Assembly: GCA_038061615.1 (NCBI GenBank)
Contig: JBBTYY010000015.1
Location: 1,298-65,297, forward strand
Direction: 5' to 3'
Source of the DNA: Patescibacteria group bacterium
GTDB taxonomy: Bacteria > Patescibacteriota > Microgenomatia > Levybacterales > UBA12049
DNA: 64,000 nucleotides
Part shown: piece by piece, positions 3,912 to 50,841 of the stretch
How the letters are laid out: each line of letters opens with the position of its first letter
Position numbering within the stretch: position 1 is the stretch's first letter
Program-made: the position numbers and the translations under genes
Notes under the pieces: generated by a model
Seen by the model: the letters and a program-made list of their open reading frames with translations, nothing else
The model's database searches: none
What the model was told of the DNA's origin: nothing

Positions 3912-3939
3912 GCTCGTATTTTACCATTTCCTAAAGGCT

Positions 3940-5001: not shown

Positions 5002-5004
5002 AAG

Positions 5005-6258: not shown

Positions 6259-6261
6259 TGC

Positions 6262-7583: not shown

Positions 7584-7585
7584 AA

Positions 7586-8707
7586 CTATTTTTTAACTCC
7601 CTCAAAGTATTTACTTATTCTATCAACTACAAATTCTTGCATTTCTCGTGTCAATTCAGGGTAAATTGGCAAAGATAAAATTTCTGATGATATTTTTTCC
7701 GTTACTCTTAAGTCTCCCCTTTTATATCCTAAATAAGCATATGCCCTCTGTAAATGCAAGGGTATTGGATAATGAATTAACGACTGTATTTTGTTTTCTT
7801 TTAGATACTCCAATAATCCGTCTCTTTTTTTTGTCTTTATTACATAAAGGTGAAAAACATTCTTTCTGCCATTAAAAATTTTGGGAGTTTGGATAAATGG
7901 AACATATTTTTTTAGTAAATCTGAATAGTACTCCGATATCTTTATTCTTTTTTCATTCCACTTATCAAGATGCTTAAGTTTCACTCTTAAAACTGCAGCT
8001 TGAATACTATCCAGGCGGGAATTTACTCCTAAAATATCATGGTAGTATTTTTCTCTTTGTCCATATTCCCTCAACAACTTATATTTATTTGCTAATTCCT
8101 TGCTGTTTGTAACTATTGCGCCAGCATCTCCATACGCTCCTAAATTTTTTCCTGGATAAAAGGAAAAAGCAGAAAATATTCCGAATGTACCTACTTTTTT
8201 ACCTTGATATTCTGCTCCGTGTGCCTGTGATGCATCTTCTATAAAATGGATCTTTTTCCCTGTCTTTTTGATACTTTCTCTTATCTTTTCTATACTGTCC
8301 GGCTGTCCATACATATGAACCACTATTATTGCTTTGGTTCTATTGTTAATCTTCCTTTTTAAATCTTCCAGATTAATCTGGAAATCTTCGTTTATATCTA
8401 CAAAAACCGGCCTAAGGCCGTTCTCGGAAGCAGCTAAGGCTGTGGAAATATATGTATTTGCGGGTATTAGGATTTCATCTCCCTGTTCAAGCTCCAATGC
8501 CCTTACTCCCAATATCAAGGCATCGGTGCCCGAATTAACGCCAATGCAATAATTTGCTCCAAGATAATGAGCAAATTCCTCCTCAAATTTATTCACATCT
8601 TCGCCCTGGATAAATTTAGCGGATTGAATTACTTTGAATATAGCATTTTCTATTTCGGTTTGGATTTCTTCATATTGCAGCTTAAGATCAACAAAAGGAA
8701 TATTCAT
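7586..8707 (-). CDS. DegT/DnrJ/EryC1/ArnB-family PLP-dependent sugar aminotransferase
   Basis: 373 aa. GVNSGTDAL, FIEDASQAHGA and SFYPGKNLGAYGDAGAI; the catalytic Lys is present. Confidence 0.85.
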   Translation of the reverse strand: MNIPFVDLKLQYEEIQTEIENAIFKVIQSAKFIQGEDVNKFEEEFAHYLGANYCIGVNSGTDALILGVRALELEQGDEILIPANTYISTALAASENGLRPVFVDINEDFQINLEDLKRKINNRTKAIIVVHMYGQPDSIEKIRESIKKTGKKIHFIEDASQAHGAEYQGKKVGTFGIFSAFSFYPGKNLGAYGDAGAIVTNSKELANKYKLLREYGQREKYYHDILGVNSRLDSIQAAVLRVKLKHLDKWNEKRIKISEYYSDLLKKYVPFIQTPKIFNGRKNVFHLYVIKTKKRDGLLEYLKENKIQSLIHYPIPLHLQRAYAYLGYKRGDLRVTEKISSEILSLPIYPELTREMQEFVVDRISKYFEGVKK

Positions 8708-10875: not shown

Positions 10876-11451
10876 ATGATAAAAGCTTTTAGTTTGATCA
10901 ATGCCGACTGGAATAGATATTTAAAAGCCCACGCCAGTACAAATAAAAAATGGAGTATTCTTGAAAAGACTGCAATCTTTTTTCATAATCCGAATATGTT
11001 TTTTATCATGATGTATGGGGTAGAAAGCTACCTATTTACCCATGAAATTCCTATATTACGATATCTTGGTTATCTTTTGTATCCATTTTATTTCTACATA
11101 AATTATTTATTTTTAGATCTGCATATTCATCCAACTGTGAAAATTGATAAGGGTTTTTACCTCCATTACAAAGGTATTATTATTACCAAAACAGTTTCGG
11201 CTGGTGAGAATTTAACACTTATGGGCCCATTAACAATAGGAACTGACCTTGGAGAAGGACAAGGAGCGAAAATTGGAAAAAATGTTACAATATGTACTGG
11301 TGCACGAATTATTGGAGACTTAACCATAGGTGATAATGTGATAATAGGAGCAGGAAGTGTAGTCGTTAAGGATATTCCATCAAATGTAATTGTTGCCGGC
11401 GTTCCTGCTAAAATTATAAAGCAGTATAAGGAATACAAAGAAAAAAAATAA
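10876..11451 (+). CDS. Hexapeptide-repeat (LbH) acetyltransferase, CysE/WcaB-like
   Basis: 191 aa. The C-terminal half carries left-handed beta-helix hexapeptide repeats (IGKNVTICTGARIIGDLTIGDNVIIGAGSVVVKDIP) preceded by a SAT-like N-region. Confidence 0.7.
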   Translation: MIKAFSLINADWNRYLKAHASTNKKWSILEKTAIFFHNPNMFFIMMYGVESYLFTHEIPILRYLGYLLYPFYFYINYLFLDLHIHPTVKIDKGFYLHYKGIIITKTVSAGENLTLMGPLTIGTDLGEGQGAKIGKNVTICTGARIIGDLTIGDNVIIGAGSVVVKDIPSNVIVAGVPAKIIKQYKEYKEKK

Positions 11452-11454
11452 TAT

Positions 11455-12471
11455 ATGAAAAAAGGACAATTCATAAAAGACAAAAAAATTTTAGTTACAG
11501 GAGGAACGGGATCTTTTGGGACAATGTTTATAAGAGAGATATTGAAATTCGATCCGAGAGAAATCATCGTTTTCAGTCGAGATGAAGACAAGCAGGGTGC
11601 AATGAGGTTGTCCTATAAAGGTAATAGCAAGTTAAGATTCATTCTTGGGGATGTTAGAGACATACGAAGTGTCAAGGAAGCGGTAAGAGGCGTAGATATC
11701 ATTGTTCATGCTGCTGCGTTAAAGTGGATACCAGAAGTTGAGTTAAACGTATGGGAAGCAGTAAAAACAAATGTTATCGGCGCACAAAATATTATTGAAG
11801 CGGCAAGAGATGCGAATGTCGAAAAAGTTCTCGCGTTATCAACAGATAAGGCTGTTGAACCGGTGAATGCCTACGGCATGGCAAAGGCTTTGCAAGAAAG
11901 GCTTATGACAACTGCTAATCTCTACGATAATGGCGCTCGAACAATTTTTGTTTCTACACGATATGGAAACGTGCTGGGATCGAGAGGATCCGTAGTGCCA
12001 CTTTTCCGATCTCTCATCGAACAGGGAAAACCTCTCACCATTACCGATCCTTCGATGACAAGATTTCTTCTCACCCTTAAGGAAAGCGTTGAGCTTGTTT
12101 TGAAAGCATTAGAAGAAGGGGTCGGTGGAGAGGTATTCGTTCGTAAGATGCCAGCTCATACGATGGGAGATTTGGTGGATGTTATGCTGCAAGCTCTGCC
12201 ACGGGAAAAAAGAAAGGTTACATCAATCGGAGTACGGCCCGGAGAGAAGATCCACGAGTTGCTCGTGAACACAGCAGAATCTGCTCGAACTGTCAAGCTG
12301 GATGATTACTATGTAATCTTACCGCAGGTTCAGATTCCGGCAGTCGAAAAAAAATACAAACACGTGAAACGGCTTGGTGAATTTCGTTATGATTCGGATA
12401 CCACAAGGCGTATGAGTAAAAGCGAGCTAGCCAGGGTTCTTAAAGCAGAAGGTTGGATACAGCAACTTTGA
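11455..12471 (+). CDS. UDP-GlcNAc 4,6-dehydratase (PseB/CapE/FnlA family)
   Basis: 338 aa. ILVTGGTGSFG, IVFSRDEDKQ, GDVRD, HAAALKWIPEVE, LSTDKAVEPVNAYGMAKA, TRYGNVLGSRGSVVPLF and PLTITDPSMTRF are near-collinear with H. pylori PseB. GC (~42%) is higher than in neighbouring genes. Confidence 0.85.
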   Translation: MKKGQFIKDKKILVTGGTGSFGTMFIREILKFDPREIIVFSRDEDKQGAMRLSYKGNSKLRFILGDVRDIRSVKEAVRGVDIIVHAAALKWIPEVELNVWEAVKTNVIGAQNIIEAARDANVEKVLALSTDKAVEPVNAYGMAKALQERLMTTANLYDNGARTIFVSTRYGNVLGSRGSVVPLFRSLIEQGKPLTITDPSMTRFLLTLKESVELVLKALEEGVGGEVFVRKMPAHTMGDLVDVMLQALPREKRKVTSIGVRPGEKIHELLVNTAESARTVKLDDYYVILPQVQIPAVEKKYKHVKRLGEFRYDSDTTRRMSKSELARVLKAEGWIQQL

Positions 12472-13599
12472 ATGAAAAGAGTTTTATTGGTATCCCATTA
12501 TACAGGAACGCCTGGCGGACCGGTAGATAAGTTTTACGAGTTCTTAAAAAGAGAAAATACGGTTTATGATATTCGTCATCCCCTCTGGCTAAACAGCAAC
12601 TTACCCAGCATTATCAGCGATGGACACAAAGAAACTGCTTTTAGAATTTATTCCCCCATCCGATATCTGTTAGAAGGCCTCATTACTGTGTTCTTTTGGT
12701 ATCGGTTTTTTGGCAGATCAAAGAAAATAGATCTTGCAATTTGTTTTGATTCGCTCTCTTTTATTCATATATTCATGTTAAAATTTTTATTTCATGTAAG
12801 CAAAATTGTATTTTATAATATTGACTATTCTCGAGAACGTTTTAAAAACAGAGTAATGAATTTTATTTATCAAAAAATTAGCCTCTTCTCTTACAAAAAA
12901 TGCGACTACTTTTTTTCACTGTATGACACATTCATTAAAGAAATCGACCCGAAGGGAACATTTGCATACAAAAATTATTTAGTTAAAACTACAGTTAACA
13001 CACGCTCTATTAACACCCGGTTAAAAAAAAATAAAAACTCTCTAATCTACGCCGGTGTCTTGGACTATGGCTCTGTGAACTTTGACTCCCTTCTTGCTGC
13101 GCTAAAAAAACTAAAAGAAGACGGAGTTGAATTTCGGTTTGACATTTATGGAAAAGAAGGGCCAAACGGTGAATTGCGAAAAAAAATAGCAAAACTTCAT
13201 CTTGAGAAATTTGTGTTCTTAAAAGGTGTCGTAGAAAATAAGATACTAATCGAAGAGATCCTTCCGCGATATAAAATCGGGGTATGTCCATATGCTACGA
13301 AGAAAGACCGTTTGGCCCCGGATCATGTATTCCTAGGTTCCGATTTAACAGCCAAGCTTGTGGATTATATAGCAGCAGGCTTACCAGTTGTTACTACCGA
13401 AATTAACGATGCTTTTAATATGATAGAGGAAAATAAGTTCGGTTTTTTAGTCAACACAACGGAAGATTGGTATATAGCAATTAAAAAATTATTTATAAAT
13501 CAAACTCTCTATGCGGAATATAAAAATAATGCTTTAAAGTTTGCTAAAAATTATGACGAAAGAAAAGTCTTAAATCCAATTTTTAAAAAAATCCTTTGA
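12472..13599 (+). CDS. GT4-like (group 1) glycosyltransferase
   Basis: 375 aa. The C-terminal half has a GT4 Rossmann pattern (LIYAGVL..., DIYGKEGP, AAGLPVVTTE). Start codon is adjacent to the stop of the previous gene. Confidence 0.6.
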   Translation: MKRVLLVSHYTGTPGGPVDKFYEFLKRENTVYDIRHPLWLNSNLPSIISDGHKETAFRIYSPIRYLLEGLITVFFWYRFFGRSKKIDLAICFDSLSFIHIFMLKFLFHVSKIVFYNIDYSRERFKNRVMNFIYQKISLFSYKKCDYFFSLYDTFIKEIDPKGTFAYKNYLVKTTVNTRSINTRLKKNKNSLIYAGVLDYGSVNFDSLLAALKKLKEDGVEFRFDIYGKEGPNGELRKKIAKLHLEKFVFLKGVVENKILIEEILPRYKIGVCPYATKKDRLAPDHVFLGSDLTAKLVDYIAAGLPVVTTEINDAFNMIEENKFGFLVNTTEDWYIAIKKLFINQTLYAEYKNNALKFAKNYDERKVLNPIFKKIL

Positions 13600-13606: not shown

Positions 13607-15793
13607 TTAATTCTTAAATATGAAGTTACGTCTTATCCCTATTAAAAGTACAACTAGTACAATAACCGTAAAAAGAGATACTAATCTTCCATAATAAAAA
13701 TATTTTTCTTGGGTGTAATAGACCTTAACATTATATTTACCAACTTTATTAAGCACAAAACTATTTAAGCCATTTTTTGTTTTATTCGAAGTTACGTATT
13801 TCCCGTCGATTCGTGCAATCCAATACGGACTGAAGTTTTCTGAGAAAACAAGCTTAGTAGGCTGCGAAATTTCTATATCCAAATCGTATGCTGTAGGACT
13901 AAGTATCTCATAGATCACTTTTCCTTCTCCCTGTAGCCAAAAATGGTTCTTGTATGATTGGGTTTCGTAAACTGTAATTTTGCCGGTTTTTATCTTTTTT
14001 AACCAACCTATATTATCTAATTGTTTTTCGAGATTAACTCTTTGTTTCTCATCGTATTTTCTGTCCCTCATGAAGATCTCCCCTATTGAATCGTATGGGA
14101 TAATTACATATTTTACAGACAGTTCTTCTAGTAATCTTTTAGATTCTGGTCTCTGTAATTTAGAAACTGTCTGGGCAGAATTTGCTTGCAGTGAGCTTGC
14201 CGAATCTGTTGCTTTAAAAAGTGGTTGTACCTCAACTGCCGGATGAATATTTGACGCGAAGGTAAATCTTTGCTGTCTTGGAATCCAAAGAGTTCGGAAA
14301 AAATCTGGTTGATCATACAAGAAGTCTTTTAGCTTTATGTATTCGCTTGGTACTTCATGTTTTTCAAACGTCCCCCCAAGCTGACCAAGAAAAACCGGCC
14401 TAATCAATAGTATTAAGTATAAAGTGATAAGTATTAAAAATAAGTTTTGGAAATTAAAAATTTTGTTTTTTATTGAAAATTGAAAATTGAAAATTGAAAA
14501 TTTATTATGCAATTCTAGCGATTCATAAATTTTCCAAATGCTAAAAGGTATCAACACAGAGTAAGACAGGGCGATTAGTGAATAGAATTTAGTTGAGTCT
14601 CTAAACATATTCATTCCGGGAAAATTTTGAAATAACCAGGAGTTAATTTCGCTAAATGGCGGGCTTGCGCCTTTGGCTAGAAATGCGCCAACCAAACCAA
14701 GCAAGGCAAAGAATATAATTGCTCCATTGTTAAATTGCTTCATTGCTACATTATTGTCAAATTTTTGATTTTTAATTTGTATTTTTGATCTTTGATCTTT
14801 AATTTTTGATATAAAAAGCAAACTGCTATACGCAAGTATCGGCAATATTAAAAACTCCGGTTGCAAAAAGTATATTTTTCCAAATATGTTTTCCGGCCAG
14901 TTAGGATGAAGAAGGGAAATACTATTTGAAAAATTTGCAAAACTAAAAAACTCAAATCCGGACACGCTAACAAAACCTTCCGGTATTGGCAAATTCTTGG
15001 TAAACAACAAGGGAAAAATCCAATAACTGTGAAGCAAAACCGCAATCCCAATAGGAATAGCAAAAGTATAAAGTAGAAAGTATAAAGTAGAAAGTATTTT
15101 CTCCCTTAGCGTTTTTACACTTAATGCATAATACGTCGTACTTAATACTGCATAGATTGCAATAGCAATCATACTTAAGTAAGCGATTCTGGGATCAAAC
15201 ATGACTTGAAGCGACAAGACCAATCCAGCAATAATTTGTAATTTGTAATTTGTAATTTGTAATTTGTAATTTAATGCGGAGGAATTAATTAAATTAACGA
15301 GTTTTATAAACCTTGCAAGAACAAGCGGTGCGATGGAGTAAGCCAACGCTACCCCCATCTGTCCTCCTCCGACTACCATTAAAATATATGTATTTGCAGT
15401 AAAAATAAGCGCAGATAGTCCTATCTGCCAAAAGCGGCTTCTGGAAAAAATAGTTTTTAAAAGATAAATGCTTGAAGAAATTGATAGAGCAATAAAAAGT
15501 CCAAACCAAAACAATTTATATCCAATAGCCCATGGTATATGCAAAATGCTAGTAGAAAGGTAAGCGCTAAAATAAAGATATTGATCCAGATAGTATGTTA
15601 GGATTGTCCCGCCAAGCCCATTACCATGAACCAAGCTCCAGGCAGGCGGAAACAATGTAAATTCTTTTAAGGTCTCATTAAAAAAATAGGGCCAATCTCC
15701 CCCAATTATGTTTGCATTAACAAACCATGAATAATAGATATCCACAAGCAAAATAATAAAAATACTAGTAAATAACATGCTCAATTTGCTCAT
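13607..15793 (-). CDS. Large polytopic membrane protein, YfhO/AftD-like putative GT-C glycosyltransferase (paralogue family A)
   Basis: 728 aa. More than 12 predicted TM helices, a periplasmic domain, and a C-terminal FSENFSPYW...TM anchor shared with 15790..19476 and 20673..23120. Contains several heptanucleotide repeat tracts in frame. Confidence 0.75.
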   Translation of the reverse strand: MSKLSMLFTSIFIILLVDIYYSWFVNANIIGGDWPYFFNETLKEFTLFPPAWSLVHGNGLGGTILTYYLDQYLYFSAYLSTSILHIPWAIGYKLFWFGLFIALSISSSIYLLKTIFSRSRFWQIGLSALIFTANTYILMVVGGGQMGVALAYSIAPLVLARFIKLVNLINSSALNYKLQITNYKLQIIAGLVLSLQVMFDPRIAYLSMIAIAIYAVLSTTYYALSVKTLREKILSTLYFLLYTFAIPIGIAVLLHSYWIFPLLFTKNLPIPEGFVSVSGFEFFSFANFSNSISLLHPNWPENIFGKIYFLQPEFLILPILAYSSLLFISKIKDQRSKIQIKNQKFDNNVAMKQFNNGAIIFFALLGLVGAFLAKGASPPFSEINSWLFQNFPGMNMFRDSTKFYSLIALSYSVLIPFSIWKIYESLELHNKFSIFNFQFSIKNKIFNFQNLFLILITLYLILLIRPVFLGQLGGTFEKHEVPSEYIKLKDFLYDQPDFFRTLWIPRQQRFTFASNIHPAVEVQPLFKATDSASSLQANSAQTVSKLQRPESKRLLEELSVKYVIIPYDSIGEIFMRDRKYDEKQRVNLEKQLDNIGWLKKIKTGKITVYETQSYKNHFWLQGEGKVIYEILSPTAYDLDIEISQPTKLVFSENFSPYWIARIDGKYVTSNKTKNGLNSFVLNKVGKYNVKVYYTQEKYFYYGRLVSLFTVIVLVVLLIGIRRNFIFKN
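14472..14499. repeat. (ATTGAAA)x4 tandem heptamer inside a ~100 nt 7-nt-periodic stretch (14411-14508)
   Basis: Directly visible tandem copies. Flanking DNA continues with the same 7-nt period (tattaag tataaag tgataag tattaaa ...). Lies inside CDS 13607..15793 and encodes ...FNFQFSIFNFQ... Confidence 0.9.
15233..15274. repeat. (AATTTGT)x5 perfect tandem heptamer plus a degenerate sixth copy
   Basis: aatttgtaatttgtaatttgtaatttgtaatttgtaatttaa. Inside CDS 13607..15793 and encodes NYKLQITNYKLQI. A 14-mer x2 (agtataaagtagaa) lies nearby at 15065-15092. Confidence 0.95.
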
Positions 15794-18700
15794 TTTAAAA
15801 TGATTTTTTTTGCAAAGAAGATGATAACAGCAAGAAAGGAAGCTAAGGATAGAAAAAGAAACCCATAGAAAGATTTTTGCGATGACAGCTCTATAGTAAG
15901 TGTATAATTCTCTTCTCCTTTTATATCTTGCGGTCTTATGATCCAGCCGTTGGCATACCCATTTACCTCAAAATGTCCGCCTTCAGCAATAGACCTTTTC
16001 CCCCATGTTTCAAAAGTAGATGGCGCAAGAAAAGTATTTGTGTGCATACCTTCTTTAACCATACCATTTAAATAAACCTGCTGAATCATATCGTGTCTTA
16101 TATCATCTTTTACAAAGATACCAACTAAAAATCTTTCCATCACTCCGAACATCCTAGATATTGCTCCTCGAATTTTTTCTTCACTACTAATATCCTTATT
16201 AAATAACTTCCAATTGGTATTAAATGCTTCTGAGAAAACAAGAGCATAAGGATCTTTTGCTCCACTGACAGTGACTTTATATTTCGTTGGGTTAATTTTT
16301 GTAAATATAATTTGCGGGGCAGCATATTTTTTAGAGAGCATAACTTTCTTAAACAGAATTCTGGGATACGGTACTTCTTCAACTCTAAGATTTTTTATAA
16401 GGACTTTATTGTTTATTTTGCCAGAATTTGCCAAAATATGAATATACCCGCCCAATGAACCTGGGTCGGAAGTAAAAACAGACTGGTGTATTTTCCAACC
16501 CTTAGAATTGAGGCTTTTTTCAAAAAAACTATTAGCTTTAATGCCTTCTCTTCTTCTCTCGTAAAACTTAAAAATAAAATCATCTCCATACGTGAGGTAA
16601 TCAAAGGTTACTATATATTGTCTATTTGGCCTCCAATTGGTAATTTCCTTCACTAATCCTGTTTCTTTTGCATAATCGCCAGAAGAATTTCCTGAAATAC
16701 TATGAATTGCTAATTCCGTGGAACTGATTACATTTTTCGTTTCTCCTGAATTTATCCAAAGAGAATCCTGAACTAAGTTAACAGTAGGAAGATATACAGT
16801 AAAATTTATACTCTCTTTACCGTTTATCACTATATTTTCAAATTTGGTTATTGCACCATTAATATTGCTTCCGGTAGGTCTTAATTTTGCCCCTTCAATT
16901 TCGATATATGCATTAGATAATCTATCAGGAAAATTTTCATTTTTATACTCTATATATACTTCGTATTCACCTGTTTCATCAGAAAGGTTAACCAAGCTGG
17001 CGTTGATAAAAGATGGTTTGACAGTTTTAATGTTTAATACCGCAGTTACATCACCCAACATAGTATGAACTAAACCTAAGAGGTAACGTTTTTCATATAG
17101 TGAATAAGCTGACTCTTTTATATTTGTTTCAAGGGTAATCTGATGTTGAAATAATTGCTCTGCTATTTTTATTCTATTTGCCTCTTGCCAGATCTTAGAT
17201 TCCGTTGTGTTGTTTACCCATTGCATTAATCCCATCATCCCTTCCTTATATCTGGCAATACTCGATTCCCAACTGTTATAGTTTTTCCAGTTATAAAATT
17301 CCCATAGCTTTGGTTCCTTCCATTGTTTCTTAACAATTGGTAGGTCCCATTTTGATGCTTCGGATATTCGTTTAGTCAAGAGCAAAAAACTTCGATCCAT
17401 ATACTTTTTATGTTGATTTTTTATTCTCCAAAGATCGAATCTTTCTCGCAAAATAGCAAATGGATATTGTATATCGTCTGGCTTGAGGGATATAAATGGT
17501 TGATGTTTATGTAAATGAGAGTTATCCGTTATCTCCCGTAAGGGGTTATTATCGTTTGCCTCCAAAATAACAGCAGTAGTATTTTTCATTGCATTATTAA
17601 CTTTAAAAATGGCAAAGGGTAAAGAAGCATTAAGCTGAGGAACTGAAAGAAGTGTGAGTGAATTGTTAGCTTGAATAATGTTCGTAGTTGCATATATATG
17701 AGGAAAATAAATATCATCTTTTATTGTATAAAGGTGGAATTTTTCACCGATGTCTCTTTTTTTCTCAATTGGCAGTTTATTAATAAATTCTCTGTATAAA
17801 TTTTGAGTTTGGGGAAGAAATGCCCGTACGTATCCGTAGGGAAACCCTGGAAATGTATTATCAAAAATATAAGGATCTGAATTGTAAAAAATATAGCGAA
17901 TATTCAGAATCGAAAAAAGATTTTTGATAGACTCGAAATCGTTATTCCTTACAGCTTGTAAAAAAAATTCAGAGAATGGTAATAACCCTTCATAACCGCT
18001 AAAATCATTTTTCCCTGCAAGGTAGGAAAATGTAGAAGGTCCTACATATGCTCCTCCATTTTTTCCTGCTATAAGCTGATACCCCGGATCAGGAAATGGA
18101 AAAGATAAAATTTTACCGTCAACTGGAAGATTGCGGATATAGGTAAGTACTTTCTCATATTTAGGGTCCATTTGTATAATTGGTTTTACGTATTTTGTTT
18201 GGTGCAGGTCAAGGCGATAAAAGGATCCATTAATAAATGGCCATGCCGTAAGCAAGGACAGTCCAACCACCACAAAACTCAACAAATACGCATATTTCTT
18301 TTTAACCTTATTAAAAACCGTATCCATTGATAAACCAAGTAAAACAGAGTAAAAAAACAGGTATGTAAACCCCCATTGACCATAAAAGTTACGAAACATA
18401 GAAAAACCAGGAATACGGAATAACGCTTTGTAAAAATTAAATCCAAGATCGGTTATATTTGCTGTAGCAAAAAAAAGTGTAACAAGAAAAAACAGAGCCG
18501 TTAAAAAAATAGTCTTTGTTTTACTCCACCACAATGCAAGAAAAATTATCGCGGGGAAAATAATAAAACCTGTAGATATGGTGTCTATCCTATGCAACTG
18601 GAGAAGACCCATAAAACTTATGCTTGCCTTAACGCTTTGCGCAATAGCAATAAAATAATCCAAACCTCTTGAGGATATCGCTTTTTCAGAAAAAACCGCA

Positions 18701-19476
18701 TTGTTAATCCCAGAGTCAGGAGATAACAAGTTGAGCAACTGTGGCACTAAATGAAATGCATGCAATAGAAGAAAAGCTGCTGCTCCAAAGCATAGTCCTT
18801 TTATGGGAATTGGAATTTTCCTAATGTATTTTGTATATATTAACAAAAATAAAAATGATAATGGATAAAAAGAAAAAAAACCCGGGGCCGCGACATAGGT
18901 AAAGTTAGGAGAAAAAAGTAAGGTCATCAATATAATTCCAGCAAGATATATAAGATTTGCACTCAAAAAATACCGTAAAAGAAGAAAAAAAATCAAGGGA
19001 TTTAGGAATATTTGATAATGAGTAATAATAGCTCTATCCCATCCAAGAATTGCAAAAGGAGAGAATATATAAAAAAATCCTGCCAGTATTGCAGAAGATT
19101 CTAGCCAATTTGATTCTTTTGTACCATTTTTTCCTTTCGTCACCTCTCTTACTATGCAATAAACTGAAACAAATGCTGTGCTAAGACTTATTCCATTGAA
19201 AATAGAGATAAGAATTGTAGGCGAATTAAAGAGATATTTAAAAAATGCAAGAAGTAATAAGTGCGGTATAGCCCAATAACTTACGGCCTCACCTCCAATT
19301 CCTGTCGGAACAACCCCATAGAGAGCTTGGTTAGTTAAATAAGATAGTGGGTCGTAAAAGTAAAGCCTGCTATTATCCCCACCCAAATCCATCTCGCCCG
19401 GTTTTAGCCAGAAAAAGGGAATAATAAATAAGGCAAAACATACAATAGCTACTACTATAAAATTATTTTTTTTCAT
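15790..19476 (-). CDS. Very large polytopic membrane protein, YfhO/AftD-like putative GT-C glycosyltransferase with ~400 aa extra central soluble domain
   Basis: 1228 aa. N-terminal FIIPFFWLKPGEMDLGGDNSRLYFYDP motif and ~14 TM helices. C-terminal ...VNGYANGWIIRP... plus a final TM anchor. Paralogous to 20673..23120, with a large insertion. ATGA overlap with the downstream gene. Confidence 0.8.
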   Translation of the reverse strand: MKKNNFIVVAIVCFALFIIPFFWLKPGEMDLGGDNSRLYFYDPLSYLTNQALYGVVPTGIGGEAVSYWAIPHLLLLAFFKYLFNSPTILISIFNGISLSTAFVSVYCIVREVTKGKNGTKESNWLESSAILAGFFYIFSPFAILGWDRAIITHYQIFLNPLIFFLLLRYFLSANLIYLAGIILMTLLFSPNFTYVAAPGFFSFYPLSFLFLLIYTKYIRKIPIPIKGLCFGAAAFLLLHAFHLVPQLLNLLSPDSGINNAVFSEKAISSRGLDYFIAIAQSVKASISFMGLLQLHRIDTISTGFIIFPAIIFLALWWSKTKTIFLTALFFLVTLFFATANITDLGFNFYKALFRIPGFSMFRNFYGQWGFTYLFFYSVLLGLSMDTVFNKVKKKYAYLLSFVVVGLSLLTAWPFINGSFYRLDLHQTKYVKPIIQMDPKYEKVLTYIRNLPVDGKILSFPFPDPGYQLIAGKNGGAYVGPSTFSYLAGKNDFSGYEGLLPFSEFFLQAVRNNDFESIKNLFSILNIRYIFYNSDPYIFDNTFPGFPYGYVRAFLPQTQNLYREFINKLPIEKKRDIGEKFHLYTIKDDIYFPHIYATTNIIQANNSLTLLSVPQLNASLPFAIFKVNNAMKNTTAVILEANDNNPLREITDNSHLHKHQPFISLKPDDIQYPFAILRERFDLWRIKNQHKKYMDRSFLLLTKRISEASKWDLPIVKKQWKEPKLWEFYNWKNYNSWESSIARYKEGMMGLMQWVNNTTESKIWQEANRIKIAEQLFQHQITLETNIKESAYSLYEKRYLLGLVHTMLGDVTAVLNIKTVKPSFINASLVNLSDETGEYEVYIEYKNENFPDRLSNAYIEIEGAKLRPTGSNINGAITKFENIVINGKESINFTVYLPTVNLVQDSLWINSGETKNVISSTELAIHSISGNSSGDYAKETGLVKEITNWRPNRQYIVTFDYLTYGDDFIFKFYERRREGIKANSFFEKSLNSKGWKIHQSVFTSDPGSLGGYIHILANSGKINNKVLIKNLRVEEVPYPRILFKKVMLSKKYAAPQIIFTKINPTKYKVTVSGAKDPYALVFSEAFNTNWKLFNKDISSEEKIRGAISRMFGVMERFLVGIFVKDDIRHDMIQQVYLNGMVKEGMHTNTFLAPSTFETWGKRSIAEGGHFEVNGYANGWIIRPQDIKGEENYTLTIELSSQKSFYGFLFLSLASFLAVIIFFAKKIILK

Positions 19477-20095
19477 TTAGCGTTTTTACAGCTAGAAGTT
19501 GATAAGATAGGCTTGGAAAATAATACAAGAATGGTTCAGTAATAAAGGCAATAATACCCCATATTATCCAAGGCTTATATTTTATTGTCGCACACGCTCC
19601 TCTTATGAATTTAAAACTGCGCAATCCATATACTTTATAACCAAATTTCTCGAAATCTCTTTTATTCCACCCAGATTTATGATGCTGATACGGGTTCTGA
19701 TCATAATGATCTTGATGACAAAATTCATTTGGAGTAAGAATAATTATTTTTTTCCGCGCAACTCTCTCCATTGTCCTAAGCAGTTGAACACCATCTTTTT
19801 TTCTTAAATGCTCAATCACATCTAGGGCAATGATAGCATCAAAAGTTTTTGGCTTATAATACGTATCAATTTCTCTAATATCTCCTACAATGTATCTGTT
19901 ATGTATTTTTCTTTTTTCACTTTTGTCGATACTTGGTTTATGAATATCAATGCCTTCTGAATAAATATTTTTTAATAAGAGACGGAGAGGCGAATTTTGC
20001 CCGCACCCTACATCTAAGATTGACTTATAGCCATAAATACCTCTGCTTATAATTTTATAAAAAAATATATCTTTGAACTGATTTATTGATTTCAT
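19463..20095 (-). CDS. Class I SAM-dependent methyltransferase
   Basis: 210 aa. ILDVGCGQN (motif I) and AIIALDVIEHL (motif post-II). Confidence 0.7.
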   Translation of the reverse strand: MKSINQFKDIFFYKIISRGIYGYKSILDVGCGQNSPLRLLLKNIYSEGIDIHKPSIDKSEKRKIHNRYIVGDIREIDTYYKPKTFDAIIALDVIEHLRKKDGVQLLRTMERVARKKIIILTPNEFCHQDHYDQNPYQHHKSGWNKRDFEKFGYKVYGLRSFKFIRGACATIKYKPWIIWGIIAFITEPFLYYFPSLSYQLLAVKTLNEKK

Positions 20096-20319
20096 AAAAC
20101 TGATATCTTCTCCATTGTCAAAATATTAAAATGTGATTCATTCTTTCTTTGCAAATAATATTCCAATAGTGTTATTACCGTTAATTACACCAACCACGAA
20201 ATTATTTTTTATCAGGAACTTTTTCTAGCAATTAACCCAAAGTAATTAAGATAGAATGATATTCGTAAAAACTTTTTCATGTATATTTAATTGTTTTAGA
20301 AATTGTCTTAACTTTGAAC

Positions 20320-20676
20320 TTATTCTTCTTTCCACTGCTGTATAATACCGATTAATAAGAAGAAAAAAATCCAGACTGCTGCTTTTTCTGTAGCTGGCGA
20401 CGTCCCCGTAAAAAGAAACTCAATGTACATGATTCCCAAAAGTACTAGGCAAAACAAAAAAGCATATCTTCCAGCAAGTTTATATAACATTATACTTATA
20501 CCGTATAGTCCTAACGTTATAAATATTCTTATGTCTGAACTTTCTGGAATAAGTAAAATATCTGCTAATACCGCCAAAACGACGATCGTAAGTAAAACTG
20601 GTTTGTTTTTCAAAGCGATATTAAGAAAAAATAAAGTTTTCTTGTTCCCTTGAAGCAAAGTAAAAGGAGAAATCAT
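20320..20676 (-). CDS. Small 3-4 TM membrane protein, hypothetical
   Basis: 118 aa, hydrophobic, 4-nt overlap with the upstream large membrane protein gene. No family motif recognised. Confidence 0.45.
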   Translation of the reverse strand: MISPFTLLQGNKKTLFFLNIALKNKPVLLTIVVLAVLADILLIPESSDIRIFITLGLYGISIMLYKLAGRYAFLFCLVLLGIMYIEFLFTGTSPATEKAAVWIFFFLLIGIIQQWKEE

Positions 20677-23120
20677 AAAATTATATTTATTATACCAAAA
20701 AGTCTTTTCCTATAAAAGAGAAAAGCTCCCCACAGCATACAGAAAATAAAAACTTGTAACGATACAACCAAACCTGCATAGAATATTCTTTGATCTGTCA
20801 TCTCCACGACGAGAGAGTAACTATCTCTTCCACCTACATCCTCGGGCAAAACAACCCAAGCATTCGCATATCCATTTACCTGAAAATGTCTATAGCTTGC
20901 AATCGCTTTCTTTCCCCATGTAGAAAACGTGGACTCGTCCAGAAATGTATTACTGTGTACGCCTTCTGTTACTTTACCATCAAAATAATTCGATAGGGTC
21001 TTTTTTTGTTGAGGCTCTGTATAGGCAGGGAAAAGACTCCAATTCCTATGAAATGACTCAGAAAAAACAAGAACATATCGATCTTTTGCCCCATTTACTT
21101 TCAGCCTATATCTAGTTGGGTTTATTTTTTCGAATTGAATTTTTGGCAAATCACTCGGCCCAGAACTAAATTCCTTACTGCATATTCTTTTTTGAAAGTT
21201 TTTTTTACATATCTGTTCTTCTATGAATATAGAACGCGCCTCACTTGTTTTTTTGTATGGAAAAAAAGATGAAGCGCTTTCAAAATAGGGATGCAGCTTT
21301 GGATTGTTATCATAAGTAATTATAGTATTGGTTATATAAAAATGGGGCAGAAAGTTCTGCTCATCTGTCTCATACAATCCATACTGTCCTTTTTCATATA
21401 TCTTTTTTGTTGTTATTTTGTTCACAAAATCTTCATACCCTTTTTGAGTAGAAGGAAGAAAGGTACGAACATGCTGATATGGATAAGAAGGAAAAGTTGT
21501 ATCATAAACAAGCGGGTCTTTATTATAAAAAATGTATTTAACATTAAGAAGACTTAGCATACGTTTAATTGATGTATAATCTTTTTCCTTTGCCAATTTT
21601 AAAAAAATCTCACTAAATGGCGCAATATTTATGTATCCTGCAAAATCTTTTTTTCCGGCAAGATACCCTATGGTTGATACTCCTACATAGGCTCCGCTAT
21701 TTGTGCCGTGAATCACTTGATAATTGGGGTCTGTAAATGGCAAGGTTAATATTTTACTGTCGTCTGGTAACGAACGGATGAATGCGAGTGTTTCTTTATA
21801 CTTTGGATCCATGACCATCGCGATTTTAACATTGTTTGACTGAAAATGAGTCTTGTTTACAAGCGAGCCATTTATAAATGGCCACGCCCCTAATATCAGA
21901 ACAAGTCCTATGCCAAAATATAAAATTCCAGCATACATCTGCCTAAGCCTAGAAGACACCAAAAAGAGCGCCTGTCCAAATAAAATAGCGTAAAAAAAAG
22001 AAAATACAAAAAGCCATTGGCCGATAAAATTGCGAAACATCGAAAATCCGGGGATGTAAAAAAGTCTTTTATATATTTCAACCCCTAAATCGGTAATTTT
22101 AGCGCTTAGTAAAAAGAGAATTATTAAGAGAAATATTCCGGTTAAAAGCATTGTTTTGTTTCTGCCTCTATTTAATAAAAATCCAAGAATTACAACTAAA
22201 GGAACCATCACAGACGTAAAACCAAGCATATTAACAGGAGGCAAGGAAAGAATATTCAAACTAACCTTAGCAAAAGGCAAAACTCCAAAAAAATAGTCCA
22301 ACTGATGAACAATGTCCTCTCTGCTAAATACCCTTGTGTTTGTGTTGCTACCCGGATCAAACAAGCTTAAAACCGATGGTATAAGGTGAAAAGAGTGGAG
22401 CCCGACAAATAGTAAAATGCCGGCGAAAATTCCCTTCCAGGGAAGCTTTTTGCCTCGAATAAAGGTTACATAGAAAAAAAGAAACAATAAGCTTAGAGGA
22501 TAAAACGAAAAAATTAATGGAGCAGAAACCCATGAAAAGTTATGGGCAAAAATGAACGTTATTATAAGAATAAACCAAAGATACTTAATGTTACTGGTTA
22601 AGAGATACTTTAAAAGTAAATAGAAGACGAGCGGGTTTAAGAATACCTGGTCGTGATTAAGCAATGCTTTCTCCCAGTTTCCTATCATTCTGGGAGAAAG
22701 GATATAAAAGAAACCGGCAAGCACCGAAGAAATCTCGCGAAGCATCGAAAAATATTTATTATTGTACTTTTTATCAATGAGTTCTTTAACAATGCCGTAA
22801 ACAGCAAGAAAAGCAACAACTAATTTTATGGAATTGAATACTGAAATTAAAAGATAGGGAGATTGCAAAATTGATTTCATGCCAGAAAGAAGTATTACAA
22901 TTGGCAGGCTATAGAAATGAGGCTCTACTAAGCCCATTCCAAAAGGCAGAATATTATAGAGACTGTAATTATTAAGGTAATTTATCGGGTCATAGAAATA
23001 CAGCCTACTGCTGTCTCCACCTAAATCCATCTCACCCGGTTTTAACCAGAAAAAAGGAATAATAAAAAGAAGAAGAGAAATTATGAATAAATAAGTTTTC
23101 GAACTGAGTAGAAGCTTCAT
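20673..23120 (-). CDS. Large polytopic membrane protein, YfhO/AftD-like putative GT-C glycosyltransferase (paralogue of 15790..19476)
   Basis: ORF track gives 20673..23225 (850 aa). By alignment with its paralogue (MKK...LFIIPFFWLKPGEMDLGGD), the likely start is the internal Met at 23120 (MKLLLSSKTYLFIISLLLFIIPFFWLKPGEMDLGGDSSRLYFYDP). Shares the C-terminal ...QVNGYANAWVV... + TM block. Confidence 0.75.
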   Translation of the reverse strand: MKLLLSSKTYLFIISLLLFIIPFFWLKPGEMDLGGDSSRLYFYDPINYLNNYSLYNILPFGMGLVEPHFYSLPIVILLSGMKSILQSPYLLISVFNSIKLVVAFLAVYGIVKELIDKKYNNKYFSMLREISSVLAGFFYILSPRMIGNWEKALLNHDQVFLNPLVFYLLLKYLLTSNIKYLWFILIITFIFAHNFSWVSAPLIFSFYPLSLLFLFFYVTFIRGKKLPWKGIFAGILLFVGLHSFHLIPSVLSLFDPGSNTNTRVFSREDIVHQLDYFFGVLPFAKVSLNILSLPPVNMLGFTSVMVPLVVILGFLLNRGRNKTMLLTGIFLLIILFLLSAKITDLGVEIYKRLFYIPGFSMFRNFIGQWLFVFSFFYAILFGQALFLVSSRLRQMYAGILYFGIGLVLILGAWPFINGSLVNKTHFQSNNVKIAMVMDPKYKETLAFIRSLPDDSKILTLPFTDPNYQVIHGTNSGAYVGVSTIGYLAGKKDFAGYINIAPFSEIFLKLAKEKDYTSIKRMLSLLNVKYIFYNKDPLVYDTTFPSYPYQHVRTFLPSTQKGYEDFVNKITTKKIYEKGQYGLYETDEQNFLPHFYITNTIITYDNNPKLHPYFESASSFFPYKKTSEARSIFIEEQICKKNFQKRICSKEFSSGPSDLPKIQFEKINPTRYRLKVNGAKDRYVLVFSESFHRNWSLFPAYTEPQQKKTLSNYFDGKVTEGVHSNTFLDESTFSTWGKKAIASYRHFQVNGYANAWVVLPEDVGGRDSYSLVVEMTDQRIFYAGLVVSLQVFIFCMLWGAFLFYRKRLFGIINIIL

Positions 23121-23182
23121 CAATGTTGGTATTATATCATCTTGGTATTGATAAAAATAAGAGCAGAGAATATAATTTCCGT

Positions 23183-24400
23183 ATGGTAAAAAATGGAAAC
23201 AGTAATCTTCGGGTTCCTTACGCACTGGCCGTTCACGGAAACGAAGAAAAATTAAGGGTTATAAAAGTTTTGGATGAACATAGAACAAATTTAGGAAAAG
23301 AAACTATAGAATTTGAGAAAAATGTTGCAAAAGCGTTTGGCAAAAAATTCGGCGTAATGGTAAATTCAGGCTCATCTGCTAATTTTCTTGCCATTGAACT
23401 CTTAAATCTTCCACCAAAATCGGAGGTAATTACTCCCCTTCTTACATTCTCAACCACAGTTTCGCCACTTGTTCAGCATGGACTTATTCCAGTTTTTGCA
23501 GACGTTGATCCTGGAAAATATACAGTTAATGTTGATCAAATTGAAAAGCTTATAACAAAAAAGACAAAAGCTCTTATGATACCTCTCCTTCTAGGAAATG
23601 TCCCAGATATGGGAAGGTTAAAAGAAATTGCCAAAAAGCATAAATTATTTTTCGTTGAAGATTCATGCGATACATTAGGAGCTACTTTTAACGGCAAACC
23701 AACGGGAGCATATTCCGATATCACAATTACCAGTTTTTTTGGATCCCACATTATAACCGCAGGCGGCAACGGCGGAATGATTATGGTAAACCGAGCCGAC
23801 TGGAAAGACAAAGTAAATGTCTTAAGAGGATGGGGCAGATCGTCTGCACTTTTTGCCGAATCGGAAAATATCGAGAAGCGTTTTAAAACTAAATTGGGAA
23901 CTATTCCTTATGATGCAAAATTTTTATTTGACGAAATAGGATATAACTTTCTTCCAAATGAGATGGGTTCTGCTTTTGGAAATGCACAGCTTGAAAAACT
24001 TCCTAAATTTAGAAAAATAAGAGAGTACAATTTTAGATACTTAATTAATTTTTTCAAAAAATATGAGGAATTTTTCATCCTTCCTAAGCAGGATAAAAAA
24101 GTTTCTACTCAATGGCTCGCTTTTCCCTTAACCATAAGAGCGAGCGCTCCTTTCTCAAGACTTGAGTTGGTAAAATATCTTGAAGCAGAAAATATCCAGA
24201 CCCGTCCAATCTTTACAGGAAATATATTAAAACACCCGGGTTTTAAGAACATTTCACACAGGATAATCAGTGGCGGATGTCCAGTCACAGATGAGGTCAC
24301 GGAGAGGGGATTTGTGATTGGCTGCCACCATGGTCTTGAAGAAAAACACGTTGAAAAAATCAAACGAGTATTTGCTTCTTTCCCTAAGAAATATTTATAA
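23183..24400 (+). CDS. PMP-dependent NDP-4-keto-6-deoxyhexose 3-dehydratase-like (E1/RfbH/ColD-like DegT-family member with His replacing the catalytic Lys)
   Basis: DegT-family fold (NSGSSANFLAI, FVEDSCDTLGA). The Schiff-base Lys position reads SFFGSHIITAGGNGG, where aminotransferases have SF..K..TxGEGG. The His substitution is the hallmark of E1 and ColD dehydratases. Start is probably the second Met (23183) to avoid overlap with the divergent gene. Confidence 0.65.
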   Translation: MVKNGNSNLRVPYALAVHGNEEKLRVIKVLDEHRTNLGKETIEFEKNVAKAFGKKFGVMVNSGSSANFLAIELLNLPPKSEVITPLLTFSTTVSPLVQHGLIPVFADVDPGKYTVNVDQIEKLITKKTKALMIPLLLGNVPDMGRLKEIAKKHKLFFVEDSCDTLGATFNGKPTGAYSDITITSFFGSHIITAGGNGGMIMVNRADWKDKVNVLRGWGRSSALFAESENIEKRFKTKLGTIPYDAKFLFDEIGYNFLPNEMGSAFGNAQLEKLPKFRKIREYNFRYLINFFKKYEEFFILPKQDKKVSTQWLAFPLTIRASAPFSRLELVKYLEAENIQTRPIFTGNILKHPGFKNISHRIISGGCPVTDEVTERGFVIGCHHGLEEKHVEKIKRVFASFPKKYL

Positions 24401-25307
24401 ATTTTAGAATTGTTTCTGTTATTTGCTGAACAGAGAGCCCATTATATTCTAGTAAATATTGTACAGATCCAGTGATACTCGTAAATTTGTCGGGTACACC
24501 AAAACGGTAAAACTTTACCTGCCTTCCAGATTCGGCAATAATTTCGGCTACTGCGCTCCCTAATCCGCCAATAATATTATGCTCTTCTAGAGTAAAAATA
24601 TATCCTGTTTTCCTTGCTGCTTCTAAAATTATTTTTTTATTAATTGGTTTTATGACCGGAAGAGAGATTAATGTCCCCTCCGCGTTTTTTTTTGACAAAA
24701 CTTCTACAATGTCCAGAGCCATTGGTAATAAACTACCACTTACAAAAAGAGTGAATTTGCCACCATTTTTTATTTTTATTCCAGCTTCAGGATGAAACAA
24801 TTGTTGAGTTTTATGGATCACAGGACTCCCCGCCTTAGTTATTCGTATATATACTGGACCATTAATCTCGTATGCAGCTTTTGTTGCCCATTCTGCTTCA
24901 ATTGGATCTCCCGGAGTAAAAATAGTCATGTTAGGAAGTAATCTCATCAGTCCTACATCTTCTAAAGCAAAATGGCTTACTCCTAACTGATTAGAACTAA
25001 ATCCTGCAGCGACACCAATGATCTTTACGTTAACGTGATTATAGGCAACATCAAGTCGAATCTGTTCAAAACATCTCATTGTTGCAAAGGGAGCCTGGGC
25101 GTAAAAGAAAACTTTATAACCGCAGAGCGCGAGACCAGTTGCAATACCAATAGTACTTTGTTCTGTTACCCCAGTATTCAAAAAACGCTCTGGAAATTCT
25201 TTTTCTACATCTTCAAAAACTGAAAATCCCATATCAGCGGTTAGAGAAATAATATCTTCATTAACTCTCATCAAATCAACAAGAGTATTTAAAAAGGCAG
25301 TTCTCAT
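24384..25307 (-). CDS. Transketolase C-terminal-section subunit (split transketolase)
   Basis: 307 aa. Pyrimidine-binding and C-terminal domains (FLNTGVTEQSTIGIATGLALCGYKVFFYAQAPFA...). Confidence 0.8.
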   Translation of the reverse strand: MRTAFLNTLVDLMRVNEDIISLTADMGFSVFEDVEKEFPERFLNTGVTEQSTIGIATGLALCGYKVFFYAQAPFATMRCFEQIRLDVAYNHVNVKIIGVAAGFSSNQLGVSHFALEDVGLMRLLPNMTIFTPGDPIEAEWATKAAYEINGPVYIRITKAGSPVIHKTQQLFHPEAGIKIKNGGKFTLFVSGSLLPMALDIVEVLSKKNAEGTLISLPVIKPINKKIILEAARKTGYIFTLEEHNIIGGLGSAVAEIIAESGRQVKFYRFGVPDKFTSITGSVQYLLEYNGLSVQQITETILKFINIS

Positions 25308-26128
25308 AGCCCTAACTCGCTTTCAGCAATCTTAATTTCTTTTTCTGTTGGAGTTCTATAATGCCATTCATTTCTATCCTCTAATACCGAAACCCCTTTA
25401 CCTTTAATAGTATGAGCAATAACAATACTTGGCTTACCTTTTTCGAATGGAAGCCTTGAAAAAACTTGCGAAATTTCCTCAAAACTATGACCATCAATTT
25501 CTTTTACAGACCATTTAAATGCTTCCCATTTCTTAACAAAAGGCTCTAAATCCAAAACATCTGCAACCCGACCAAAGCTCTGCCATTTGTTGTAATCGAC
25601 AATAACAACAAGATTATCGAGCTTGTGATGGCCAGCTTGTAAAATTGCTTCCCATGTTGATCCTTCATCACATTCACCATCGCTTGTCATAACAAATACT
25701 CTATATTCTCTTTTTTGCAGTTTTCCAGCCAAAGCCATACCAACTCCAATTGGAAGACCATGTCCCATTGATCCGGTTGTTGCTTCTATACCAGGAGTTC
25801 CATTTCTTGTTGCAATGCCAATCATCTTACTACCATCTTGACAATACGTATCAAGCAGTTTTTTTTCAAAAAACCCTTTTCTTGCTAAGATTGTATATAA
25901 TGTTGATATCCCCCATCCTTTACTCAAAATGAAACGATCGCGATTTGGATCTTGAGGATTTTTTGGATCAATCTTAAGAATCTTCTCATACAAATATACT
26001 ATTAATTCAACAATAGAATATGATGAGGCGATATGAGATGCGTGAGCAGCAACTATTATCGATAATACAGTTTGTCTGATTTCCCTTGCATACTTTTTAA
26101 GCGACTCAAATTCTTTTTTATCAAGCAT
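25304..26128 (-). CDS. Transketolase N-terminal-section subunit (ThDP-binding)
   Basis: 274 aa. GSMGHGLPIGVGMALAGK and VMTSDGECDEGSTWEA are ThDP-binding motifs. 4-nt overlap with the C-terminal subunit gene. Confidence 0.8.
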   Translation of the reverse strand: MLDKKEFESLKKYAREIRQTVLSIIVAAHASHIASSYSIVELIVYLYEKILKIDPKNPQDPNRDRFILSKGWGISTLYTILARKGFFEKKLLDTYCQDGSKMIGIATRNGTPGIEATTGSMGHGLPIGVGMALAGKLQKREYRVFVMTSDGECDEGSTWEAILQAGHHKLDNLVVIVDYNKWQSFGRVADVLDLEPFVKKWEAFKWSVKEIDGHSFEEISQVFSRLPFEKGKPSIVIAHTIKGKGVSVLEDRNEWHYRTPTEKEIKIAESELGL

Positions 26129-50805: not shown

Positions 50806-50813
50806 AGTTTGTA

Positions 50814-50841
50814 AGCCTTAAAGACTTAAGACTTAAGACTT
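50814..50841. repeat. (AGACTTA)x3 + AGACCTA tandem heptamer filling the intergenic spacer
   Basis: Directly visible between the galE start codon and the stop of the four-helix-bundle gene. The same TAAGACN/AAGTCTT heptad family recurs at 42363-42397, 51208-51235, 51682-51716, 59957-60023 and 61662-61749. Confidence 0.9.

Follow-up and report, generated by a model that had tools for sequence, protein, structure and literature searches.

A conserved cassette of three putative GT-C fold membrane glycosyltransferases in a Patescibacteria glycan locus

The DNA analysed here is a 64-kb stretch of a Patescibacteria contig (JBBTYY010000015.1), hereafter the window, and the whole of it is a glycan locus. 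Five co-directional genes on its minus strand are described, in the order C, 's', a methyltransferase gene, B and A (Table 1), where A, B and C code for the three large membrane proteins that a sequence-only reading of the same DNA had reported; their existence, coordinates and strand were confirmed. As judged from predicted structures and remote homology, A, B and C probably belong, as three diverged proteins, to a single unannotated branch of membrane glycosyltransferases that are AftD/YfhO-like and have a glycosyltransferase C (GT-C) fold.

The stop of C and the start of 's' overlap as ATGA, as do the stop of B and the start of A, and the end of the methyltransferase gene overlaps the start of B by 14 nucleotides (nt). 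The sole sizeable gap within the cassette is a non-coding one of 224 nt (20096-20319) between 's' and the methyltransferase gene. For C, the longest open reading frame (ORF; 20673-23225) begins with GTG and would give 850 amino acids (aa). The ATG start at 23120 is backed by the homologues, whose N-termini lie 10-25 residues ahead of the IPFFW motif, and the 850-aa version would run into the divergent DegT ORF on the plus strand (23123-24400). GenBank proteins 100% identical to A and 's' bear the locus tags AAB609_00650 and AAB609_00665, respectively.

Table 1. Genes, domains and motifs of the cassette, in window coordinates (TM, transmembrane; SAM, S-adenosylmethionine; pLDDT, predicted local distance difference test)
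Feature	Position	Strand	Description	Remarks
C	20673..23120	-	short-form GT-C-like membrane protein, 815 aa from ATG at 23120	orthologues 770-830 aa
's'	20320..20676	-	small membrane protein, 118 aa, ~4 TM helices (read from sequence)	
methyltransferase	19463..20095	-	SAM-dependent, 210 aa	Methyltransf_11, E 3e-11
B	15790..19476	-	long-form GT-C-like membrane protein, 1228 aa	
A	13607..15793	-	728-aa GT-C-like membrane protein	remote B/C homologue, fringe of YfhO/DUF6541/AftD families
B residues 1-417	18226..19476	-	membrane core, read as 11 TM helices, N-terminus inside	homologous to A family membrane domain
B residues 418-606	17659..18225	-	extracytoplasmic alpha/beta domain common to C	invariant D437
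B residues 607-1041	16354..17658	-	435-aa extra module, absent from C	
B residues 671-814	17035..17466	-	helical bundle, six helices, pLDDT mostly 83-93	invariant Y671, E678, K702, E706, W736
B residues 823-1034	16375..17010	-	beta-sandwich of extra module	invariant W907, F958, W994
B residues 1042-1228	15790..16353	-	C-terminal beta-sandwich (FSEAFNTNW, VNGYANGW) and single TM anchor 1201-1228	
GGD of B (G32-G33-D34)	19375..19383	-	candidate catalytic Asp, first extracytoplasmic loop	
GGD of C (G34-G35-D36)	23013..23021	-	candidate catalytic Asp, first extracytoplasmic loop	
GGD of A (G31-G32-D33)	15695..15703	-		
PGFSMFR of B (356-362)	18391..18411	-	proposed outer loop ahead of TM10	

Comparison by BLASTP revealed 47% identity between B11-606 and C48-641 (numbering of the 850-aa version; E 1e-175) and 39% identity over 186 aa in the C-terminal block (B1042-1222 and C677-834; E 3e-38), leaving residues 607-1041 of B as 435 extra residues relative to C. 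On these alignments, B and C are clear paralogues. Between A and B, and between A and C, BLASTP found no significant similarity. When family alignments of 54 long-form (B-type), 42 short-form (C-type) and 58 A-type sequences were compared with hhalign, however, the A family matched the short-form family with a probability of 99.6% (E 5.6e-25) over 599 columns, with C18-800 aligned to positions 16-689 of the A profile. This alignment is near full length and takes in the soluble domains and the C-terminal FSE..W strand. With the long-form family, the A family matched with a probability of 96.3% (E 1.6e-9) in the membrane domain. Because BLASTP is silent while the family profiles match, A is read as a remote full-length homologue of B and C and not as a close paralogue. 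The earlier description of all three as paralogues thus holds for B and C and is weakened to distant kinship for A.

In an exhaustive homologue search with C as query, the number of representative clusters was 327 at a threshold of E <= 1e-30 and rose to 1804 at E <= 1e-3, the lengths of the homologues being bimodal (750-850 and 1150-1300 aa). The search for homologues of B gave >100 proteins of 1170-1280 aa that are conserved end to end; within the family, this long architecture is commoner than any other and no peculiarity of B. A rough neighbour-joining tree of the common 600 aa grouped most short forms, including C, into a single 39-member clade that is separate from the long forms. Since short and long forms cluster apart in this tree, B and C are considered to be old paralogues; C is 48-49% identical to the short forms of other genomes and 47% identical to B. 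A recent duplication giving rise to B and C within this genome was considered as well and is rejected on the short-form clade and on these identities.

Structure prediction was decisive for the protein class. The AlphaFold model of A had a pLDDT of 86.0 and a predicted template modelling score (pTM) of 0.88, and that of B (residues 1-1200) had a pLDDT of 85.6 and a pTM of 0.78. Foldseek against the PDB revealed AftD (6w98) as the top match of both models (B, E 3.5e-11; A, E 2.8e-7), which agrees with the YfhO- or AftD-type architecture suggested by the sequence-only reading. The further matches of the A model were DPY19 (2e-5), AglB (4e-5), STT3 (1e-4 to 8e-4) and ArnT (3e-2), which are all GT-C fold glycosyltransferases. 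For the B model, AftD was the only GT-C structure among the 50 matches listed, and it was followed by beta-sandwich proteins including the carbohydrate-binding modules (CBMs) CBM22, CBM16 and CBM4, with TM-scores of ~0.6 on the target over ~160 columns. A multi-pass core with a GT-C fold match was thus found for both A and B, and C would be placed in the same fold superfamily through its 47% identity to B.

Several results weigh against this assignment. The TM-scores to AftD are modest (0.40-0.49), with a large global root-mean-square deviation. A, B and C matched no Pfam or NCBIfam model significantly, in line with the earlier statement that no motif match was certain, and family profiles and single sequences searched against PDB sequences retrieved only chance matches (gp41, ATP synthase epsilon, SpaS). 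With no significant glycosyltransferase sequence model and no PDB sequence match, the GT-C assignment rests on predicted structure and remote homology. In addition, neither a GtrB/CsbB-like GT2 protein nor a recognisable GtrA-type flippase was found consistently beside the cassette, and for at least one AftD-like membrane protein, MmpA, transferase activity has not been demonstrated (PMC8698533).

Model by model, A, B and C gave no match to PF11847 (GT-C_AftD) at E <= 1, to YfhO (PF09586) or to the PMT/PMT_2 models of Pfam. For Emb there was no Pfam match and no structure among the listed fold matches, 7bvf_B (EmbB) with E 2.3 being at chance level. None of the 42 short-form members matched a glycosyltransferase-related Pfam family, GT-C_AftD and YfhO included. 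Within the A family, Pfam matches were obtained to DUF6541 (9/58), YfhO (5/58, best E 3.4e-8) and GT-C_AftD (2/58, E 0.05), and a few members bear a precomputed PF09586 tag.

The window is AT-rich (~33% GC) and A versus B or C is non-significant by BLASTP, both of which would suit a compositional origin of the similarity between A, B and C, above all in their C-terminal block, and an annotation or assembly artefact in the case of the 'insert' of B. Against this stand the profile E of 5.6e-25 for an alignment of 599 columns that extends into the soluble domains, the two architectures kept in hundreds of homologues, with the long form end to end in >100, and the confident models of both A and B. 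The probability of an artefact is, on these comparisons, practically nil, and we regard that explanation as refuted. The C-terminal block, for which the sequence-only reading had itself raised this doubt, is homologous by hhalign, and no non-glycosyltransferase family was assigned to any of the three proteins.

The plan shared by the three proteins, as described before, comprises the membrane domain and the C-terminal FSExF...W block, the latter being present in all of them (LVFSENFSPYW, LVFSEAFNTNW, LVFSESFHRNW). The N-terminal motif FIIPFFWLKPGEMDLGGDxSRLYFYDP was likewise found in both B and C. VNGYANGW, which had been ascribed to two proteins, occurs only in B, the counterpart in C reading VNGYANAW. 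Further motifs are PG(F/M)xMFR, common to all three (B 356-362; C 357-363; A 392-398, PGMNMFR), and an Asp common to B (D437) and C (D438). The topology proposed for B obeys the positive-inside rule, with a Lys plus Arg density of 0.29 in cytoplasmic and 0.07 in outer loops, and it is by this analysis that the GGD Asp, the PGFSMFR loop and D437 are placed on the outside.

An acidic residue of the first extracytoplasmic loop is 100% conserved in all three families. G32, G33, D34 and R37 are invariant in the B family (n=54), D36 is present in 42/42 short-form members of the C family, where G34 is also invariant, and D33 is invariant in the A family (n=58). The same outer-loop position is where the catalytic acidic residue of GT-C enzymes lies, and from the conservation pattern we infer a catalytic role of the GGD Asp.

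This conservation also bears on whether all three proteins are enzymes. At least one paralogue might be a non-catalytic membrane scaffold or a lipid/glycolipid delivery factor, as proposed for MmpA, a protein partly homologous to the N-terminal part of AftD that is needed for trehalose-lipid transport and in which no catalytic domain has been recognised (PMC8698533). A weakly matches the NCBIfam model of MmpA (E 4e-5), and three paralogues plus a small subunit in fixed co-occurrence would suit a structural complex. The MmpA match is, however, far under the cut-off (22 bits versus 210), and a first-loop Asp at 100% in all three families, together with other outward polar residues, is unexpected for a decayed enzyme, which makes a scaffold role improbable.

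The 1228-aa protein B had been credited with an extra region of ~400 aa, Asn/Lys-rich and of beta type. Pairwise BLASTP delimits it to the 435 aa given above, and its composition is only mildly shifted (Asn 9.0% and Lys 8.3%, versus 5.3% and 6.4% elsewhere in the protein). In the B model, the extra module consists of a helical bundle of ~145 aa and a beta-sandwich of ~210 aa, so that the beta-type description applies to the second part only. The alpha/beta domain in the same model spans about residues 438-606, and the C-terminal beta-sandwich spans residues 1039-1197.

Most likely, the CBM-like jelly-roll matches of the B model map to the 823-1034 sandwich and not to the C-terminal sandwich, because the A model, which has only the C-terminal sandwich and is without the extra module, yielded no CBM matches with Foldseek. 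The predicted fold is compatible with the carbohydrate-binding module that had been put forward as a possibility. An F5/8 type C domain, for which a check had been proposed, did not emerge, as the extra module and the C-terminal domain of B matched nothing in Pfam even at E <= 10, F5/8 type C and CBM families included. A relative of 1014 aa (P0318) aligns to B only at residues 16-605 and 831-1224 and appears to keep the beta part without the helical bundle. Because the alignment covers the beta part and not the helical part, it suggests that the two are separable modules.

These observations also bear on the nature of the acceptor. A, B and C could be protein glycosyltransferases of the oligosaccharyltransferase or PMT kind, acting on S-layer, pilin or other surface proteins; the matches of the A model to AglB, STT3 and DPY19 (E 2e-5 to 8e-4) agree with that, and several PMT/PMT_2 proteins further along the window make protein glycosylation plausible in this organism. 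It is nevertheless an unlikely identity for the trio, since the glycan-acting AftD is the best match of both models and the single GT-C structure among the 50 matches listed for B, PMT/PMT_2 Pfam matches are missing in A, B and C, and the CBM-like modules point to a carbohydrate acceptor. The WWDxG motif marks STT3/AglB/PglB, and in the form WWD[YFWN]G it occurred in 0/370 family proteins, which speaks against an oligosaccharyltransferase identity.

A synteny scan over one genome per species (185,579 species) yielded 52 loci, and gene order was counted on the 29 loci with a long form. An A-type gene lies directly downstream of the long form in 22/22 assessable loci, 's' is upstream of it in 23/27, the exceptions there being due in part to split ORFs or short contigs, and the short form follows further upstream in 17/18. 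The cassette order is thus short form, 's' (~115 aa), long form and A-type gene, with a SAM methyltransferase usually in or beside it; two contigs with B homologues have the same neighbours. The sugar-nucleotide and glycosyltransferase genes that flank the cassette in the window recur in 0-13 of 21 loci, 15/16 tested genes being found in <=7, and the GT2 genes of the window recur in 0-7 of 21 cassette loci. As the cassette order is fixed while the flanks vary between loci, the cassette is a conserved core within a variable glycan locus.

Approximately 24 of the 52 loci are titled 'uncultured Gammaproteobacteria' and one 'Gammaproteobacteria bacterium', and all other named hosts are Patescibacteria. 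The third-party assemblies with Gammaproteobacteria titles (loci L004, L006, L012, L018-L020 and others) have the same cassette as metagenome-assembled genomes of Levybacteria and Gottesmanbacteria, and the record titles may be placeholders.

The small protein 's' is 51-54% identical to the genes in the same position in loci L001 and L003. A profile search gave 75 family matches of ~90-135 aa, in which D48 and E97 are invariant and every named member is a 'hypothetical protein'. No Pfam match, GtrA included, was obtained with 36 members, and no PDB sequence match by profile. By the same searches, identification of 's' as a GtrA-type flippase or an SMR-like protein was left unsupported. Many loci have 2-3 copies of 's' (L012, L014, L016, L019, L020, L022, L024, L031, L044), and two subtypes can be read from the sequences, one following the short form and ending ...ER.AVWLYLFLVIGVIQKWRE, the other preceding the long form and characterised by TEKAAVW...IQQWRE. 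The window has only the second, long-form-preceding subtype. Since there is one subtype for each flank, each large enzyme may have its own small partner 's'.

Fusions of 's' to a methyltransferase were found in L006 (2892-4025), L041 (10114-11130) and L042 (10054-11109), the methyltransferase being FkbM-like by its motifs in L006 and Methyltransf_11-like in L041 and L042; in some genomes, 's' can thus be read as a membrane anchor for the methyltransferase. A methyltransferase is also fused to the C-terminus of the B-type protein P0055 and of the C-type protein P0245. Judged from these fusions to B-type, C-type and 's' proteins, the methyltransferase is tethered to the membrane system in three independent ways. 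In L001 (1638-5414), a C-type short form of 1258 aa (49% identity to C over the full length) continues after its C-terminal TM helix into a GT4 domain (Glycos_transf_1). A cytoplasmic C-terminus of the large proteins fits these cases, because the domains fused behind the last TM helix (P0055, P0245, L001) are of cytoplasmic type. The L001 fusion would pair an outward-facing GT-C enzyme with a cytoplasmic nucleotide-sugar glycosyltransferase in one chain.

AftD of the Mycobacteriales (6w98, PF11847), the best structural match of B and A, resembles them in its core of ~11 TM helices, followed by a large extracytoplasmic alpha/beta and sandwich/CBM region and a TM helix back (bioRxiv 10.1101/2019.12.22.885152). 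Another common feature is a conserved Asp early in the first outer loop, and D41 is essential in AftD. AftD has 16 TM helices, made up of 11, TM12 and a C-terminal four-helix bundle (TM13-16), and three CBMs (bioRxiv 10.1101/2019.12.22.885152), whereas A, B and C end in a single TM helix and are without the TM13-16 bundle, and one CBM-like sandwich is present in the extra module of B, a module that C and A do not have. The helical bundle of B is not among the AftD domains listed in the same paper. Identity in the structural alignments is ~9-11%, the PF11847 sequence model is unmatched by A, B and C, and AftD hosts are Actinobacteria, in contrast to the Patescibacteria that host the cassette.

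The YfhO/DUF6541 proteins of Firmicutes (PF09586, PF20176), which take part in lipoteichoic and wall teichoic acid glycosylation, likewise combine a membrane core with an extracytoplasmic domain and account for the only glycosyltransferase-type Pfam matches, which came from A-family members. A comparable beta-sandwich, with a strand of the FSE...W type, lies at the C-terminus of YfhO-type proteins. The substrate of YfhO is a surface polymer, and the sugar comes from a C55-P-sugar (PMC8035078). A itself and all scanned B/C-type proteins, however, fail the YfhO/DUF6541 models, the YfhO partners, namely a CsbB-type GT2 encoded next to it and a flippase of the GtrA type, are not consistently present beside the cassette, and three paralogues in fixed order are not a YfhO feature.

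In multi-component transmembrane glycosylation, a GT-A lipid-sugar synthase and a small flippase operate with a GT-C enzyme (PMC8035078). The cassette is similar in having a GT-C gene beside a small membrane protein whose size and TM count are like those of GtrA-type flippases, and in the window there are four GT2 proteins for which two TM segments are predicted at the C-terminus. One of these (2985-3911) gave a full-length match to ArnC (E 3e-43, under the curated cut-off) and lies downstream of a formyltransferase and an aminotransferase gene in the same minus-strand gene run. The likeness does not extend to 's', which is without a GtrA or other Pfam match and serves as putative methyltransferase anchor in some genomes, nor to the GT2 genes, which are not conserved beside the cassette. 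A fixed three-component system with a neighbouring GT2 is ruled out, as the flanking genes vary between loci.

EmbC, EmbA and EmbB are three paralogous GT-C enzymes with extracytoplasmic carbohydrate-binding domains that are encoded side by side; they work on one polymer with a polyprenyl-phosphate sugar donor, and EmbA and EmbB form a heterodimer. They are the closest analogy for three paralogues held in one operon. No sequence relationship to Emb was detected, no Emb structure stands among the listed fold matches, and the domain order and accessory genes ('s', methyltransferase) are unlike.

Taken from the predicted folds, A, B and C are most likely extracytoplasmic glycosyltransferases using polyprenyl-phosphate sugars, and the trio probably builds or decorates a cell-surface sugar polymer. 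The three GT-C genes would be co-transcribed as one operon, and each product would have a membrane core with the GGD Asp in the first outer loop, an alpha/beta domain, a beta-sandwich and a C-terminal TM helix leading to the cytoplasm. As the fold family suggests, a sugar would be drawn on the outer side of the membrane, with a polyprenyl-phosphate-sugar as donor, and then joined to the cell-surface glycan, where the extra module of B may hold a longer or more complex acceptor. The enzymes would carry out successive steps on one conserved polymer and might do so within a complex. What the data establish is the homology, the predicted fold, the conserved motifs, the synteny and the fusions; catalysis, the type of donor, the acceptor and the existence of a complex are what we infer here. 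Successive steps are favoured because the trio is fixed in order while the neighbouring sugar genes vary, and the parallel would be mycobacterial arabinan and mannan, each of which is assembled by multiple GT-C enzymes.

A more far-reaching proposal, which we consider speculative and rather unlikely, is that the cassette encodes a Patescibacteria-specific complex of the three GT-C proteins with 's' and a tethered methyltransferase that polymerises and branches a conserved, possibly methylated surface glycan with polyprenyl-phosphate monosaccharides as building blocks, as a functional counterpart of the mycobacterial Emb/Aft/Mpt pathway. There, 's' would be the counterpart of TM13-16 of AftD or a lipid-sugar flippase.

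The kind of protein is already known, namely AftD/YfhO-like GT-C fold glycosyltransferases, and AftD is an essential enzyme of mycobacterial cell-wall assembly. New would be a GT-C family outside the current sequence models, its distinctive long form and the conserved three-paralogue cassette. Patescibacteria (candidate phyla radiation) are mostly uncultivated and the building of their cell surface is poorly known; in the literature, no paper was found on GT-C or YfhO proteins of this group or on such a polymer, nor on the envelope of Microgenomates. Since the cassette stays together while the surrounding sugar genes vary, the operon is marked as putative core surface-glycan machinery. For the family, so far without a Pfam or NCBIfam name, a profile model of its own could be built; a concrete target for mutagenesis is the GGD Asp, and the cassette is small enough for heterologous expression.

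Elsewhere in the window, many GT2 and GT4 genes, DegT aminotransferases and epimerases/dehydratases were found, along with two sugar C-methyltransferases, a split transketolase, a formyltransferase, a Wzx-like flippase and PMT_2/PTPS_related arrays. On the minus strand, positions 2985-8707 hold an ArnA/ArnB/ArnC-like set with the formyltransferase at 6642-7583, a DegT aminotransferase at 7586-8707 and, within the set, a sugar C-methyltransferase and an epimerase. Its ArnC-like GT2 matches undecaprenyl-phosphate 4-deoxy-4-formamido-L-arabinose transferase, and the set could supply a lipid-linked formamido-sugar donor to one of the GT-C enzymes.

Upstream of C, the split transketolase (N-terminal and pyrimidine/C-terminal halves) lies beside a nucleotidyltransferase and epimerases (24384-26128, minus strand). 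The same transketolase gene run precedes the cassette in the same order in the Gottesmanbacteria contig L003 (3341-5079) and may belong to a branched-chain sugar pathway. On the other side of the cassette, three inverted genes on the plus strand (10876-13599) code for a hexapeptide acyltransferase, a Polysacc_synt_2 dehydratase and a GT4; a 141-aa ORF antisense to them (11166-11591, minus strand) is probably spurious. An NYN-domain protein at the edge of the locus (286-897) and a DUF5667 protein amid the membrane proteins (49286-49813) have no evident connection with glycan synthesis.

More GT-C-like membrane proteins are encoded in arrays on the minus strand at 46507-63999. The proteins at 46507-48156 and 52027-53679 are PTPS_related and 33% identical. 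Four related genes follow at 53651-59508, with a PMT_2 Pfam match in 1/4; identity among the three full-length ones is 30-42%, and for the product of 53651-54946 the match to them is confined to the N-terminal 130-190 residues (27-32%). Two PMT/PMT_2 paralogues with 38% identity occupy 59531-62979, and a partial, less similar relative of both (~25%) is encoded at 63001-63999. With A, B and C included, ~12 GT-C-like membrane proteins are encoded in the window.

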